DNA of 64,000 nt from an uncultured Hormoscilla sp. Lineage in GTDB: Bacteria > Cyanobacteriota > Cyanobacteriia > Cyanobacteriales > Desertifilaceae. Position numbers and translations under genes: made by a program. The DNA lies in the NCBI GenBank assembly GCA_963921275.4, contig OZ001293.3, positions 5,696,001-5,760,000 of the forward strand, written 5' to 3'. Under the pieces are notes generated by a model. The model did no database searches and was not told the DNA's origin. It saw only the letters and a program-made list of their open reading frames with translations. Positions 1-61,680 of this stretch are shown here, in pieces (the first letter of the stretch is position 1; each line of letters begins with the position of its first letter).

Positions 1-880
1 GTAAAGGCGATGTCTTCGCGATGCCTTCCGGGTTTTCGCCGTGCGTCCGGAAGGCATCGTAGGTTTTTGCGATTTTTCGCGCAGCGTAGCATCCCGATTT
101 TTCCGGAACGGTAGACATCGAAGTCGGGCTATCATGGTCGGAAACTAAGTGATAGGCAATGCTTTTTTGACCGGGTACCTGTACTAGGATCGAGCCAGTG
201 GACGCCTCCACTTCCCAGTAGTCTGGGATGACTTCTCCTTTTACCAGGGACATTCCTAACCCCCAAGTCCCCTGGATGCTCCAGATTCGGTTGGCCCTTA
301 AGACTCCAGAGGCGATCGCATTCTGGATCGGTTGCACCAAGACCGCCCAGTTAATCTGTGCGATGCTAATACCTCTGCGCTGCCAGAAGAACAAGCTGCG
401 GGCTCTAAATAACTCCGCCCAGGCGAGTTTCAGGGTGCGGGCGATCGCATCATTATCGGTAAAGCTGACATAAGATTGCCAAAGTCCAGCAACAGTATCA
501 CTTAACATAGGGTGATATGCCTCGCCACTCAGAGACTTGACATGCACAGAAGGGCGAAAAATTACTGTGGGAACTTGCAACTGTTTAATCCCTTGAGAAA
601 GGGTTGCCAACCATTCTAGAGGTAGGGTGGCGTCCGCAAGCAGCTGACGGAGACGTCTGGCTTCTGCTTGCAGTTGGCGGGGGTTATCCACTCTCAAGGC
701 TGCATATGCTGGTTCTAACCCGTCTTGAGTTTCCAGAAACTGCCGCCAGACTCCGCTGTTCACCACCAACCCCGGGACTACCGGATAGCCATGCTGCATT
801 AATTGGCTCAGGTAAAAGGCTTTATTCCCTACCAGGGCCCGGTCCGTTGGTTGAATTTTCTCTAGCCAGTAAAGATCCAC
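1..880 (-). CDS. PEP synthase/PPDK N-terminal-domain protein, 5' part (runs off the window)
   Basis: Manual translation from GTG at 880: MDLYWLEKIQPTDRALVGNKAFYLSQLMQHGYPVVPG...WAVLVQP...GTWGLGMSLVKGEVIPD; open to base 1; carries an in-frame repeat insert at 8-120; not in the ORF track. Confidence 0.75.
   Translation of the reverse strand, partial: MDLYWLEKIQPTDRALVGNKAFYLSQLMQHGYPVVPGLVVNSGVWRQFLETQDGLEPAYAALRVDNPRQLQAEARRLRQLLADATLPLEWLATLSQGIKQLQVPTVIFRPSVHVKSLSGEAYHPMLSDTVAGLWQSYVSFTDNDAIARTLKLAWAELFRARSLFFWQRRGISIAQINWAVLVQPIQNAIASGVLRANRIWSIQGTWGLGMSLVKGEVIPDYWEVEASTGSILVQVPGQKSIAYHLVSDHDSPTSMSTVPEKSGCYAARKIAKTYDAFRTHGENPEGIAKTSPL
8..120. repeat. Composite hairpin element (CGATGTCT...AGACATCG) with nested CGATGCCTTCCGG...CCGGAAGGCATCG
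   Basis: Related copies at 1841-1934, 34681-34724 and 62305-62361 share GCATCCCGA; all but the 34681 copy also share TTTTTCCGGAACGG. Confidence 0.8.
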
Positions 881-922
881 AGTTAAGATGTAAATAATCT
901 CTCGTCAACAGGAGTATGGAAG

Positions 923-58186: not shown

Positions 58187-58818
58187 ATCAATAGTCAGTA
58201 GTTAAGCGACTACTGAGAATGAAAGTACCAAGATATGTAGCCAAACCCAATACCTCAAAGGATAGCAGAGAGCGAGATCGCTCCGATCGGGGAGATTGCT
58301 AGCCCTCCTGGCATCAGGCCGCTGCGCTAGCAAAGGAGGGTTAACTCAATTGAGCATAAGTTAACCGCGAAGTCCCCCCCACGCTGCGCGAAAAATCGCA
58401 ATAACTTAGAACTCGCAGATTATCAATGTACCAATCAAGTAAAGCCATTTCTTAAGTACAGCAAATTTTACTGGTACTTAATTTTTACGCAAGTCCCCAA
58501 CCTAGATCCAAAACCTTGAAGTATTGTGGCCAAACCCACCTCTGGCCCCTCCCAAGAGGGGAACAAGAACAGCCTGGTTGAAGTTTGTTCTGGTACTTTC
58601 TTATTGAGAAATAGCCTTAGTGGTCAGTTGTCAATGGTCAATGGTCAGTTGTCAGTTGTATTAGAGGTAGGTGACCAGTTCACTGATAACTGGTGGCCAG
58701 TGCCCACATGCGCTGCGCGCACGCTGCGCGAACGACTGTCCAGGGCTGCGGGTACTTGGTGGATAGTGGGTACTTGGTGGATAATGGGTACTTGGTGGGC
58801 GGTGCCCACCCTACGACT

Positions 58819-61680
58819 ATGGTAGATGAACCAGATTTTCAAGAGGCAGGCGATCGCCTGCCTCCCCAAAACATCCAAGCAGAGGAAGATATCTTAGGAG
58901 GCATTCTCCTGGACCCGGAAGCTATCGGTCGGGTGGCAGATATCCTGCGTCCAGAGGCTTTTTCTCTGCAAGCTCATCAGCGCCTCTATCGCTGCGCCCT
59001 CACTCTCCAGAATGAAGGCAAACCAACGGATCTGACGACTGTCACTACCTGGCTGTCTGACCAAAACTGGCTCGGGTCGGTAGGGGGGATGAGCAAGTTG
59101 GCTCAACTGGTGGACCGTACTGTCAGTGCTGTCAATATTGACGAGTACGCGAAACTGGTGATGGACAAGTACCTGCGTCGCCAGTTGATTCAAGCTGGTC
59201 ATGATATTGTCGGGCTGGGGTTTGAGACTTCTACAGAGTTAGAAGTTGTGATGGACCGGGCCGAACAGAAGATTTTCGACCTGCGGACGGATCGTTTCCA
59301 GCAGGGTCTAGTTCCCATCTCCAAAACCCTGGTCGGTGCTTTTCAAGAAATTGAAATCCAAAATCAGGGGACAGCTTTACCGGGTATTCCCTGCGGTTTC
59401 TATGACTTGGATGAACTCACTGGGGGTTTTCAACGTTCTGATTTGATTATTGTGGCGGGTAGACCGTCCATGGGAAAATGTTTGGCGTCTAATGCGGTTA
59501 TATTGCTGGCAACTGGCGAAGTGGCTACCATTGCCGAAATATATCAGCGGCGTCAAGCCCAATTGCTGACTCTCGGGGAAGATAGAAAATTTGGCATCAC
59601 TTCACCATCTGCTTTTGTGGATGATGGCATCAAGCCTGTATTTCGCGTTCAAACTCGACTGGGACGGGTGGTTGAAACGACAATTACTCATCCTTTCTTA
59701 ACTATTAATGGATGGCAGCAGCTTGGGAAACTTAAAAGGGGCGATCGCATTGCGGTTCCTCGCCAGCTGGAAATTTTTGGTACAGAATCTATCCCTGAAT
59801 GTAGAATTAAGTTGTTAGCATACCTAATTGGGGATGGTTGCCTCACAGGTGCTTCACCCCAGTTTACGAACGGCAACCCCCGACTGCAAAAAGATTTTGT
59901 TCAAGCTGTCTCTTTGTTGCCAGGGCTAAAAGTTACTTATCAAACTTCACAGGGTAGGCGCACGCCCAGCCTTTATGTTACAGCTGATTTAGAATTAATT
60001 GCGAAAAACCGACAGCTTTTTGGCAGTAGTCTGCGCACAATTCTGCAGTCCAAATCGATATCCAATAAAAAACTGGCTCAAGCGGTGGGAGTCAGTGGGT
60101 CTTTGGTGTGTCTGTGGCAGCAAGGAGGCTGCGTACCGAATCAAGAAACCTTTAGTCAGCTATGCGAGTTTCTGCAAGTAGATCCCGAAAAACTTGCGCC
60201 TCATGGACTTGCCGCAATTAGTAAAAACAGCAAAAATACCCTGACGCTTTGGTTACAAGAATTAGGTCTGTGGGGCAAGAAAGCACATACTAAGACTGTC
60301 CCTCCAGTTGTTTTTAAGTTGAGGCGATCGCAGCTTGCTCTCTTCCTCAACCGTCTGTTTTCTACCGATGGATGGGCGACAGTATATTCAAGCGGTCAGC
60401 TGTGTCCCTCCTTTTGTGCGAATAGCGCATGCGCTGCGCGCACGCTACGCGATCCCGGGGGACACAGGTCGCAGGTGGGATATGCTACAGCTAGCGAGCA
60501 ACTGGCACGACAGGTACAACATCTTTTACTCCGGTTTGGCATTATTGCAGCTCTGAAAAAAAGGTCGGTTAAATACAAAGATACCCGCAAGCGTGCTTGG
60601 CAGCTAAATATTACTGACTCGAAATCAATCAGAACTTTTATCTGTGAAATTGGTATTTTTGGTAAGGAAGAGAACTTGTCCTTAGTGCAAGCAGCTTTAG
60701 CAGAGAGTCCGATGTGCGATGCGCGCGCTATACATGCACAGTGCAAAGAACATCGGGCTGGAATTAGGGGATACAGCAATATTCATGTTGGCAAACGGGC
60801 TTTATCGCGAGAGAGACTTCTAACATTGGCAAGGGCTTTAGATAATTGGCCCTTACAACAGTTAGCTACTTCTGATGTATGCTGGGATAAAATTGTCTCT
60901 ATAGTACCGGTTGGCTGGCAGCAGGTGTATGATTTGACGATTCCTGAGACGCACAATTTCGTTGCTAATGATATTTGCGTTCATAATACTAGCTTTGTTC
61001 TCAATATTGCTCGCTCTATTGCTGCCAAGCCAAAGCTGCCGATCGCTATCTTTAGTCTGGAAATGTCCTGCGAACAGTTGGTGATGCGTTTGCTATCTAG
61101 TGAGGCGAATATTGAAAGTAATCGCTTGCGATCGGGCCGCATCACTCAACTGGAGTGGGAACCTTTAAGTACTGCCCTGAGTACTCTCTCTGATTTGCCA
61201 ATTTTTATCGATGATACTCCTAATCAAACAGTAAGTCAGATGCGATCGCAAGCCCGCCGCTTGCAAGCCGAACAGGGTGGTGTTTTGGGTTTAATTTTGA
61301 TCGATTACTTGCAACTCATGGAAGGCGCTAGTGATAATCGAGTACAGGAGTTATCCCGCATTACCCGTCAACTCAAAGGTTTGGCCCGATCGCTGAATGT
61401 CCCTGTGATTACCCTTTCCCAGCTGTCTCGCGGTGTCGAATCTCGCAATAATAAACGCCCGATGATGTCTGATTTAAGGGAGTCTGGATCGATCGAGCAA
61501 GATAGCGATCTAATTTTGATGCTATATCGTGATGAATATTATAATCCTGATACCCCCGATCGCAACATTGCCGAAGTGATTATTACCAAACATCGCAATG
61601 GTCCCACTGGGATGGTAAAGCTATTGTTTGAGTCAAATCTGACTCGCTTTCGTAACCTCGCCCCTCGCGATCGTTCTTAA
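58819..61680 (+). CDS. dnaB: Replicative DNA helicase with intein
   Basis: LPPQNIQAEE, AGRPSMGK|T, FSLEMS, IDYLQLM, SQLSR, DLRESGSIEQDSD, KHRNGPTG. Confidence 0.96.
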   Translation: MVDEPDFQEAGDRLPPQNIQAEEDILGGILLDPEAIGRVADILRPEAFSLQAHQRLYRCALTLQNEGKPTDLTTVTTWLSDQNWLGSVGGMSKLAQLVDRTVSAVNIDEYAKLVMDKYLRRQLIQAGHDIVGLGFETSTELEVVMDRAEQKIFDLRTDRFQQGLVPISKTLVGAFQEIEIQNQGTALPGIPCGFYDLDELTGGFQRSDLIIVAGRPSMGKCLASNAVILLATGEVATIAEIYQRRQAQLLTLGEDRKFGITSPSAFVDDGIKPVFRVQTRLGRVVETTITHPFLTINGWQQLGKLKRGDRIAVPRQLEIFGTESIPECRIKLLAYLIGDGCLTGASPQFTNGNPRLQKDFVQAVSLLPGLKVTYQTSQGRRTPSLYVTADLELIAKNRQLFGSSLRTILQSKSISNKKLAQAVGVSGSLVCLWQQGGCVPNQETFSQLCEFLQVDPEKLAPHGLAAISKNSKNTLTLWLQELGLWGKKAHTKTVPPVVFKLRRSQLALFLNRLFSTDGWATVYSSGQLCPSFCANSACAARTLRDPGGHRSQVGYATASEQLARQVQHLLLRFGIIAALKKRSVKYKDTRKRAWQLNITDSKSIRTFICEIGIFGKEENLSLVQAALAESPMCDARAIHAQCKEHRAGIRGYSNIHVGKRALSRERLLTLARALDNWPLQQLATSDVCWDKIVSIVPVGWQQVYDLTIPETHNFVANDICVHNTSFVLNIARSIAAKPKLPIAIFSLEMSCEQLVMRLLSSEANIESNRLRSGRITQLEWEPLSTALSTLSDLPIFIDDTPNQTVSQMRSQARRLQAEQGGVLGLILIDYLQLMEGASDNRVQELSRITRQLKGLARSLNVPVITLSQLSRGVESRNNKRPMMSDLRESGSIEQDSDLILMLYRDEYYNPDTPDRNIAEVIITKHRNGPTGMVKLLFESNLTRFRNLAPRDRS
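59479..60987 (+). mobile_element. Intein (503 aa) in the DnaB P-loop with LAGLIDADG endonuclease and XRE-like HTH
   Basis: GK|CLASN...HPFLT...LAYLIGDG...LFSTDG...VYDLTI.ETHNFVANDICVHN|T. Confidence 0.95.

Follow-up and report, generated by a model that had tools for sequence, protein, structure and literature searches.

Several families of short hairpin elements have recently inserted at hundreds of sites in the genome of an uncultured Hormoscilla sp. (G000), often into one another, and some of them lie in frame in intact genes such as dnaN and folP. In our reading the elements are selfish, the reading frame filters the copies that land in genes, the retained copies add peptides to loops, and movement takes place in trans through folded single-stranded DNA. 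The probability of this explanation as a whole is put at about 0.7; taken separately, selfish insertion followed by filtering is very likely.

Inserts in the window and their empty sites

An earlier note on the window (the whole stretch analysed, 64,000 nt) proposed in-frame, repeat-derived inserts in six genes, all of which have an uninterrupted reading frame and the Pfam domains expected of them. Comparison with four genomes of the same genus (G001–G004) revealed empty sites for those in comF, dnaN, folP, the dnaB intein, the PEP-synthase-like gene and the GT39-like gene at 8210–8277, delimited here as 8211–8279 (Table 1). The other two GT39 segments, at ~6283 and 7747–7974, are instead older GTAG-REP repeats common to the congeners. 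The 7747–7974 unit is present once in G001 and G002 and twice in G003 and G004, tandem duplication having expanded it by +84 to +156 nt, and the REP type of 6273–6345 also flanks a Y1 gene at C1:241795.

Table 1. Hairpin elements and related repeats located in the window
Feature	Position	Strand	Comparison or source
114-nt nested hairpin stack, PEP-synthase-like gene	9..122	-	in frame; absent in G001
69-nt comF insert: 45-nt class B hairpin with 24-nt class A in its loop	1212..1280	+	
Second comF insert, 24-nt hairpin, missed by the earlier note	1303..1326	+	empty in 4/4 congeners
Older GTAG-REP-derived segment, GT39-like gene	6273..6345	+	absent in G001; variants in G002–G004
GTAG-REP-derived unit, GT39-like gene, 3 tandem copies in frame	7747..7974	+	congener comparison
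69-nt insert (45 + nested 24), GT39-like gene	8211..8279	+	empty in 4/4 congeners
54-nt class B hairpin in dnaN	39964..40017	+	empty in 4/4 congeners and run X8; filled in X1–X4
108-nt folP insert, 54-nt hairpin nested in another	41796..41903	+	strain series; X5 and X8 skip 108
69-nt insert (class B with nested class A), dnaB intein	60400..60468	+	empty in 4/4 congeners
44-nt class B hairpin, intergenic sibling copy	11938..11981	.	census
24-nt class A copy, intergenic	5028..5050	.	census
22-nt class A siblings (non-3n), outside called genes	31795..31815, 23515-23535, 35179-35199	.	census
Nested class B, intergenic, outer ends as in PEP-gene insert	62304..62386	.	k-mer profile, census

The PEP-synthase-like frame (855 aa, with a PPDK_N domain) runs past the start of the window. 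Its stack has class B outer ends, with units of a 42-nt family and of the GATTTTTC type within, and adds 114 nt relative to G001; different fills occupy the site in G002, G003 and G004 (+136, +114 and +45). At comF 1212–1280, G001–G003 have an empty site, and G004 has just the 45-nt outer element, lacking the nested 24 nt; searches of the phage and plasmid collections gave no match to the comF insert. The folP site is empty in G001, G003 and G004, and holds +54 in G002 and +108 in G000. At dnaN the insert boundary has a 4-nt ambiguity (CCGG). All six large inserts give hairpin folds, at z = −4.2 to −7.7 relative to shuffled sequences (−5.2 for the PEP gene, −7.3 for the 69-nt comF insert and −6.9 for GT39 8211–8279), and no Rfam match was found at the inserts.

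In orthologue alignments the added segments are absent from 28 other dnaN loci and from 22 of 23 other folP sequences. The dnaB insert lies inside the LAGLIDADG domain of the intein according to Pfam ranges, and the PEP-synthase-like gene seems split in G002. Neither therefore shows tolerance by an essential protein.

Contigs of runs X1–X4 (0.99 match to the window) contain the filled junctions with 0 differences, and an empty-site joint was found in none of them. In the independent runs X5 and X8, 54/59 nt are skipped at dnaN and 108 nt at folP. The filled junctions together with these skips indicate that the inserts are not assembly artefacts. RNA run X13 represents a relative with empty sites, and RNA run X20 gives scattered pieces only.

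Abundance and host genes

With our own gene caller, 195 of 3355 genes (about 6%) carry an element. The hosts include rpoC2 (two inserts), holA, rnc, chlH, gltB, pepA, cobJ and pbpC, named after the NCBIfam annotation of their G002 orthologues. The striking density described earlier is real for the window, which holds 22 element motifs, but it is a local peak, the mean being 8.2 per 64 kb; 6 of 31 genes in the window are hosts, and six or more host genes occur in only 3 of 107 windows. The proposal that one peptide recurs in unrelated proteins needs to be modified. The exact peptide SPGSATCAARTLR occurs twice in the six frames of the genome, both times in the window, whereas CAARTLR is found in 16 called proteins against 0.001 expected. 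Eighteen class A inserts yield eight different peptides, and class B is read in several frames.

Structure, targets and insertion geometry

The elements fall into two main classes. Class A comprises SDR5-like double mini-hairpins of 22 or 24 nt (104 and 112 strict copies, respectively, with 25 empty sites), and class B comprises hairpins of 42–57 nt that are restricted to the genus. In a stem census anchored on the loops, 680 of 941 departures from the consensus are compensated, and 12.65 pairs are formed versus 9.07 with shuffled partners. Arm wobble favors G.T over A.C (95 versus 65), and an invariant T.G wobble is present in 268 of 271. Among 111 perfect copies there are 63 distinct perfect arm types, 44 of them single. 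GNA loops are found in 261 and 253 of 273 double hairpins, the search having left the loops free, and the class B loop is GANTA, with a free N, in 214 of 271; these counts are of related copies and not of independent events. Loops of the GNA and GANTA type are described as far more stable in DNA than in RNA in the available text of PMC13037366.

Where the position is unambiguous, class A inserts after CGA, the target being CG-W-TC or CCGA, and the left base is retained in 23 of the 25 empty sites. The targets centre on CGA or CG, a part of HIP1, and exact HIP1 is used in 0–2 of 130. Class B inserts before G, and the insert comprises the hairpin without its final G together with two bases from outside it. 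The insert equals the hairpin plus one in 27 of 42 candidate pairs, of which 18 fit this +2/−1 rule and 9 do not; in 8 of the 42 it equals the hairpin length. Target-site duplication is absent in both classes, and junction ambiguity is mostly 0–2 nt. The 4–5-nt ambiguity at dnaN and folP probably reflects likeness of the element ends to the target.

Across the order, 100 of 151 genomes (more than 20 families) have the class A architecture; in this search a reversed-pattern control, blind to HIP1 abundance, gave 1 hit. Along the chromosome no strand bias of the elements is visible, and GC skew is weak. Local hopping is not supported, as identical copies lie within 100 kb in 2 of 36 pairs versus 3% of all pairs. 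Among 24-nt copies the antisense orientation relative to neighbouring genes predominates, even in intergenic positions (31 vs 15).

Filtering by reading frame

Repeat-derived inserts of 20–200 nt were compared between G000 and 2.5 Mb of G002, of which 1.36 Mb aligned. Length modulo three is non-random, as the earlier note expected: 45 of 66 inserts at coding sites are 3n versus 33 of 89 at intergenic sites (p=2e-4). Much of this pattern is built into the family lengths (24, 42, 45, 54 and 57 nt). Non-repeat indels are filtered by frame in the same way, being 3n in 62 of 70 coding and 41 of 87 intergenic cases; the frame filter is thus general.

Counts within genes called on the filled genome would be circular where copies are non-3n, and empty-site status and in-silico excision were therefore used. 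By excision, which left out 119 elements whose flanks are repeated and 3 that are nested, and which counts too few old frameshifts, 40 of 217 3n elements are at coding sites versus 4 of 97 non-3n elements (p=4e-4). The sibling lengths serve as a control, with 18 of 97 24-nt copies at coding sites versus 2 of 63 22-nt copies (p=0.003). A frame carrying a stop is used by none of the 40 in-frame copies, where 9.3±2.5 are expected. The claim that selection keeps only frame-preserving events is thus upheld in the depletion of non-3n and stop-carrying copies, but not in its exclusiveness: 21 of the 66 coding-site inserts are non-3n, for instance in phosphoketolase, and even in-frame elements reach only about half their expected share of coding sites (18% versus 36% background, p=1e-8; p=5e-5 once stops are allowed for).

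The hosts are still under purifying selection. All 27 with values have dN/dS below 0.7, with a median of 0.31, compared with 0.24 for the 317 background pairs (p=0.07). Columns that are near-invariant are retained in DnaN (81/81) and FolP (103/104, the change lying at the C-terminal end), and each of the two genes has one full-length match in G000.

Two further observations concern the state of the genome. Indels of 1 nt are many in coding DNA, with 71 extra bases in G000 and 65 in G002, where frameshift counts may include assembly indels and rpoC2 is called as two frames. Signs of decay include a broken dnaA, which is a real pseudogene, and a coding fraction of ~0.6.

Position of the inserts in proteins

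The in-frame inserts are likely to be in surface loops, as proposed earlier, with moderate support from dnaN, folP and a composition test. For the 40 in-frame inserts, the empty sites lie in hydrophilic context (percentile 0.29 within the gene), also after matching of 5-nt context and phase (percentile 0.36, p=0.002); the loop-residue signal drops to p=0.07 with adjacent residues skipped. On the other hand, the insert sites show no increase in local amino-acid divergence (percentile 0.54, p=0.32). The dnaN insert falls in a loop of variable length across cyanobacteria, ~9 residues in the solved clamp 7ybd, and that of folP follows a helix and precedes the next strand of the barrel in an alignment with PDB 5usw. 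In a FolP model built from a 24-sequence alignment the barrel is confident (pTM 0.82) and the insert, residues 96–128, has pLDDT <50, a low value that is also expected from missing alignment depth; single-sequence AlphaFold gave a pLDDT of 33.9. No solved structure matched the intein stretch. The inserts are predicted to be translated as extra peptide, which may be near-neutral.

Comparison with known repeats

Small repeats that are dispersed or lie in frame are described for Rickettsia (RPEs; PMC10969869, PMC3184786, PMC3733652) and Nostoc (SDRs; PMC4390886, PMC5861425, PMC13756078). The likeness to both, drawn earlier, holds, and the families reported here are a new variant of this known phenomenon. 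SDR5 is described as 21 nt long and inserted between bases 3 and 4 of HIP1 (PMC4390886, PMC5861425, PMC13756078). Class A is similar in length (22–24 nt, within the ~21–27 nt of SDR5), is likewise dispersed and recently mobile, shows nesting and stem compensation, and has a HIP1-like CG-A-TC sequence as its insertion site. It differs in rarely using exact HIP1, in being cut after CGA, and in an architecture that reaches beyond Nostocaceae. Class B is longer than any SDR of which we are aware. SDR5-type repeats are given as none outside Nostocaceae in the available text of PMC5861425, and that of PMC13756078 still calls the function of SDR-type elements unknown.

RPEs are ~105–150 nt long, encode one conserved peptide and number 44 copies (PMC10969869, PMC3184786, PMC3733652). 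Both they and the present elements are palindromes in frame in unrelated housekeeping genes and work in the same way at the protein level, but class A and B units measure 22–57 nt, become longer through nesting, are read in any open frame and occur in ~195 genes. Single-strand hairpins, compensatory changes, mutual insertion and an asymmetric putative intermediate are shared with REP/REPIN–RAYT systems (PMC3116915, PMC8266576, PMC3733652), for which intragenic REPs in DNA-repair genes are also described in the same papers; asymmetric intermediates are described for REPINs in PMC3116915. In contrast to REPs, classes A and B do not lie beside the Y1 genes of G000, lack GTAG at the stem foot, have other cut sites and place one fifth to one third of their copies inside genes. 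The older GT39 repeats are of the true GTAG-REP type, which flanks Y1 genes. MITEs such as Nezha and those of Anabaena (PMC3184786) are likewise non-autonomous, with inverted ends and both empty and filled sites, whereas class A and B have no target duplication and their ends are asymmetric and co-varying. Neither an IS nor any other transposase-bearing element with class A or B ends turned up in the 32 largest repeat clusters or in the 60 long end-pairs (of 133) that were inspected. A literature search that included the main text of two genome papers on the genus returned no description of the class A or B families.

Discussion

In the explanation we favor, several hairpin families of 22–57 nt have inserted without target-site duplication, often into one another, and 3n copies without an in-frame stop persist in intact genes, where drift in a decaying genome may weaken their purging. 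Folded single-stranded DNA would be moved by an enzyme acting in trans. Handling of this intermediate by a Y1/HUH-type or similar nuclease is a tentative suggestion. No mobiliser for class A or B was found in G000. Both of its Y1 genes have GTAG REPs, rather than class A or B elements, at their flanks; the HUH-type motif is altered in one, and the other carries a frameshift. The tested TnpA-REP enzymes use CT/CA sites (PMC8266576, in its available text), which differ from the cut sites CGA^ and ^G of class A and B.

Alternatively, the same selfish spread and filter could proceed through RNA copied in trans by group II intron reverse transcriptases, a route reportedly proposed for SDRs by Elhai et al. 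2008. In its favor, the 32 largest repeat clusters contain more than 190 group II introns that lack an ORF, together with at least 17 copies in which a long RT-like frame is present, and Rfam detects group II intron domains in the window. The T.G wobble and the bias of G.T over A.C fit any single strand, RNA included, and retrohoming also leaves no target duplication. Nevertheless, the loops are not GNRA but GNA triloops and GANTA pentaloops whose middle base is free, and among the matches listed for other genomes, examined by eye, GTTA/GTCA loops recur and at most two are of GNRA type. The 22-nt double-hairpin fold forms with DNA but not RNA parameters, and the elements are without ribozyme domains. 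The RNA route is thus unlikely. Template switching in replication or repair, inserting copies of folded strands where CG-containing (methylation-related) sites are nicked and homogenising the arms, would need no dedicated enzyme at all. The numerous arm types among perfect copies suggest such arm-to-arm copying, and it also suits targets centred on part of HIP1, the lack of a cognate transposase among the clusters and end-pairs inspected, and the spread of class A through the order. The fixed lengths and the recurrent +2/−1 end rule look enzymatic, however, exact HIP1 is almost never the target, and identical copies are not near each other, which renders this mechanism improbable.

Retention of the inserts for their usefulness, as interaction surfaces or as mRNA hairpins that tune expression, is in agreement with inserts common to congeners (the GT39 REP units and the outer element of the PEP gene) and with the antisense excess of 24-nt copies, which extends between genes. 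Yet coding sites hold fewer in-frame elements than the background predicts, the elements are read in whichever frame is open and hence share no common peptide, and fills of the same site vary between strains; we regard usefulness as very improbable. That the host genes are dying or the assembly is in error, so that no new protein sequence results, would accord with real pseudogenes such as dnaA, with the many 1-nt indels and with translation of the inserts being a prediction. This is scarcely credible in view of the error-free filled junctions in four runs, the single full-length dnaN and folP with their invariant residues, and the complete lack of stop-carrying frames.

Selfish hairpins moving as folded single strands thus remain our preferred reading. 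It is possible, though doubtful, that they belong to an undescribed cyanobacterial transposition system of mini-hairpins without target duplication, in which class A is order-wide, larger passengers evolved 3n lengths in the genus, and nesting builds loops into RpoC2, DnaN, HolA and FolP.

With about 6% of genes affected by our own gene calls, the scale is larger than in the Rickettsia case. Stepwise growth was caught in folP, where three strains are empty, +18 and +36 residues. The 22-nt and 24-nt siblings constitute a built-in control that makes selection on frame measurable. The target rules and loop chemistry provide testable substrates for what moves SDR-type elements, and a class A architecture distributed this widely extends a family that the available text of PMC5861425 reports from Nostocaceae only.

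Results

The phenomenon itself, small repeat elements writing predicted new peptide segments into intact genes, is real. All the named hosts are open frames with the expected domains. Alignment to the four same-genus genomes available for comparison (G001–G004) gives clean empty sites for the inserts in comF (69 nt, plus a second one), GT39, dnaN (54 nt) and the dnaB intein (69 nt). The folP insert is graded across strains, from none (G001, G003, G004) through 18 residues (G002) to 36 in G000, the assembly bearing the window; this site is also empty in 19 genomes further away. 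The PEP-synthase-like gene has 114 nt more than in G001, and the other three congeners are filled differently. Its frame measures 855 aa in G000 vs 740 in G001, while gene calling in G002 splits it in two. Two other GT39 segments that the earlier note had placed in the set fall outside it, being common to the congeners. The peptide SPGSATCAARTLR, said to recur in unrelated proteins, does recur, with 2 occurrences genome-wide. It originates from a 24-nt element inserted into the loop of a 45-nt element, since the comF allele of G004 has the bare 45-nt form.

Among sequencing runs, contigs of X1–X4, which lose rare variants, match the dnaN and folP inserts with 0 differences and 0 empty joints. 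Both inserts are skipped by the independent runs X5 and X8; X5, labelled sponge metagenome, contains a close relative.

Positions of the features discussed (window coordinates unless a contig is named)
Position	Feature	Remark
1303–1326	second comF insert	24 nt
~6283; 7747–7974	GT39 segments	match GTAG REPs adjoining the Y1 gene at C1:241795
8211–8279	GT39 insert	69 nt
35700–39108	dnaA locus	broken by group II intron, about 36229–38096
38019–38096 (+); 36320–36396 (-)	Rfam matches	intron with second intron inside, opposite strand
38312	extra base in dnaA	in runs X1–X4, absent in relatives
44592–46748	frame with 72-nt leucine-rich repeats	multi-copy family
47779–53802	2007-aa frame of 300-nt cadherin-like repeats	multi-copy family
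53953–53975	class A copy	in frame downstream of the cadherin-like repeat frame
G000:C1:5695237–5695377	second nested insert, PEP-synthase-like gene	141 nt, just beyond the window
G000:C1:241795; G000:C1:1348544	RAYT-like Y1 genes	GTAG repeats on the flanks, of a different type for each gene
G004:C23:32234–34658	interruption of dnaN after residue 59	about 2.4 kb

The reading frame is under selection. G000 was compared with 2.5 Mb of G002 (1.36 Mb aligned), and, with 55 edge cases put aside, repeat-derived clean inserts of 20–200 nt were divisible by three in 45/66 coding vs 33/89 intergenic cases (p=2e-4). Non-repeat indels show the same frame pattern (62/70 vs 41/87). In a genome-wide in-silico excision, from which 122 elements were dropped, 40 of 217 elements divisible by three lay at coding sites, all open, and 4 of the 97 others did, all frameshifts. 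Random and target-matched sites are coding in 35–38%. Copies of other lengths are thus strongly purged from coding sites (p=4e-4) and the in-frame copies themselves about two-fold (p=1e-8). The purging test gave p=0.003 for 24 vs 22 nt and p=0.11 for class B, the longer hairpins, by itself. None of the 40 in-frame copies uses a stop-carrying frame (expected 9.3). The claim that only frame-preserving events are kept does not hold: inserts at coding sites are frameshifting in 7/38 cases in G000 and 14/28 in G002, striking for example phosphoketolase and a CobC-like phosphatase (G002 orthologues were scanned for 36 of the 38 G000 events). In-frame hosts over the cut-off include rpoC2 (twice), holA, rnc, chlH, gltB, pepA, cobJ, pbpC, larB and sixA, with aroK, sbcC and menD below it. 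Host genes of inserts are still under purifying selection. The census holds 885 motifs, 235 of them within called genes, and counts as hosts 195/3355 genes of at least 150 aa from our own gene caller; it includes a third small family, added once its end GATTTTTC had been noticed (263 matches). The density called striking applies to the window, a hot spot, and not to the genome-wide level.

The empty sites of the 40 in-frame events are hydrophilic (percentile 0.29; 0.36–0.39 after sequence-context matching, p=0.002–0.02), loop-residue enrichment is weaker, and no raised local divergence was seen there. In DnaN the insert falls in a loop whose length is about 9 residues in a solved clamp and reaches some 40 among cyanobacteria. 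In FolP it comes between a helix and the barrel strand after it, on what we take from known DHPS topology to be the face opposite the active site; the model preserves the barrel and leaves residues 96–128 without resolved structure. The dnaB insert is located in the endonuclease domain of the intein, and would leave the host protein along with it.

The architecture of class A elements is TCGC-GNA-GCG with another small hairpin after it. Strict copies in G000 number 112 (24 nt) and 104 (22-nt sibling), and a search leaving the loops free found GNA in 261 and 253 of 273 matches. The left base is kept at 15/16 empty sites of the 22-nt form and 8/9 of the 24-nt form (5 of those 8 ambiguous), so the insertion point follows CGA; exact HIP1 was the target in 0–2 of 130. 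The exact 24-mer is nearly genus-specific (112 copies in G000, 53 in G003, single copies in 3/149 others). The architecture within a HIP1-like site occurs in 100/151 genomes of the order, against 1 match for a reversed-pattern control that is blind to HIP1 abundance, and reads as an SDR5-like family with a much broader distribution than the literature gives it. Some genomes (e.g. G126, G152, G120, G078, G119) carry 60–100 such copies apiece, with varied second hairpins. Copies of the 24-nt form tend to lie antisense to surrounding genes, by 36 vs 12 for those within genes and by 31 vs 15 for those between co-oriented genes. Stops account for only part of this excess.

Class B hairpin cores measure 41, 44, 52–53 and 56 nt, plus nested sums (n=205). 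Insert length equals hairpin+1 in 27/42 candidate pairs, giving 42, 45, 54 and 57 nt, and 18 of these 27 follow an end rule in which the insert takes in two bases outside the hairpin but lacks the hairpin's final G. A loop-anchored census took 476 anchors to 271 elements with 155 distinct left arms, in which 680/941 arm departures are compensated. Copies of the 45-nt core number 85, 19, 28, 32 and 48 in the five congeners including G000, and none was found in 149 other genomes searched.

Discussion

Likeness to Rickettsia palindromic elements holds at the protein level, and class A behaves like SDR5 of Nostocaceae. Yet class A and B lack defining features of RPEs (PMC10969869, PMC3184786, PMC3733652), MITEs (PMC3184786) and RAYT-REPs (PMC3116915, PMC8266576), and class A lacks defining features of SDR5 (PMC4390886, PMC5861425, PMC13756078). 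No account of these families was found in the openly accessible articles searched, and a term look-up in two genome papers on the genus, PMC6520454 and PMC7313196, gave no description.

Several features suggest that the moving form is a folded single strand: the target is not duplicated, the ends are asymmetric, the arms co-vary, one wobble is specific to a strand, and the loops are of the GNA/GANTA kind. Loops of this type are far more stable in DNA than in RNA (PMC13037366) and REPINs are reported to have an asymmetric intermediate (PMC3116915), which together with the folded-strand signs favours single-stranded DNA. We put at about 0.4 the probability that this DNA is the carrier, moved in trans by a Y1/HUH-type or similar enzyme. 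Against such a route, both Y1 genes of G000 show degeneration, since the HUH-type motif is altered in one and the other is frameshifted, and the repeats at their flanks are not class A/B; congeners, though, have 4–6 Y1 matches each, with better-scoring genes. Also against it, the tested TnpA-REP enzymes cut at CT/CA (PMC8266576). An autonomous partner was found neither in the 32 largest repeat clusters nor in 60 of 133 long end-pairs inspected; the elements show no strand bias along the chromosome, and local hopping is unsupported. Group II intron reverse transcriptases are abundant in G000, so an RNA route through them may be considered beside single-stranded DNA.

The cyanobacterial assembly G000 totals 7.0 Mb. 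Its contig C1, of which the window is positions 5696001–5760000, has 4738 HIP1 sites. HIP1 is absent from all of contigs C2–C7, which therefore may not be the cyanobacterium's; C3 has 31 kb at 17.6% G+C. C1 also bears group II intron-like repeats without an ORF (clusters of 106, 68, 11 and 11), several others that do encode a reverse transcriptase, a DDE element present in 76 copies, and IS5-like elements, names that we assign partly by recognition and that Pfam backs for the window copy. Single-nucleotide indels are common in called genes of the aligned G000 and G002 coding DNA (extra bases 71 and 65), about half in homopolymers, and both decay and assembly error are possible sources. The G004 dnaN is interrupted, possibly by a group II intron.

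The intron in dnaA is absent at that position in congeners, the first exon is frameshifted, and dnaA appears to be a pseudogene here. We call the genome decaying because dnaA is broken and the coding fraction is about 0.6. Such decay would allow fixation of mildly harmful inserts, and we infer that the inserts of this organism may have become fixed in this way.
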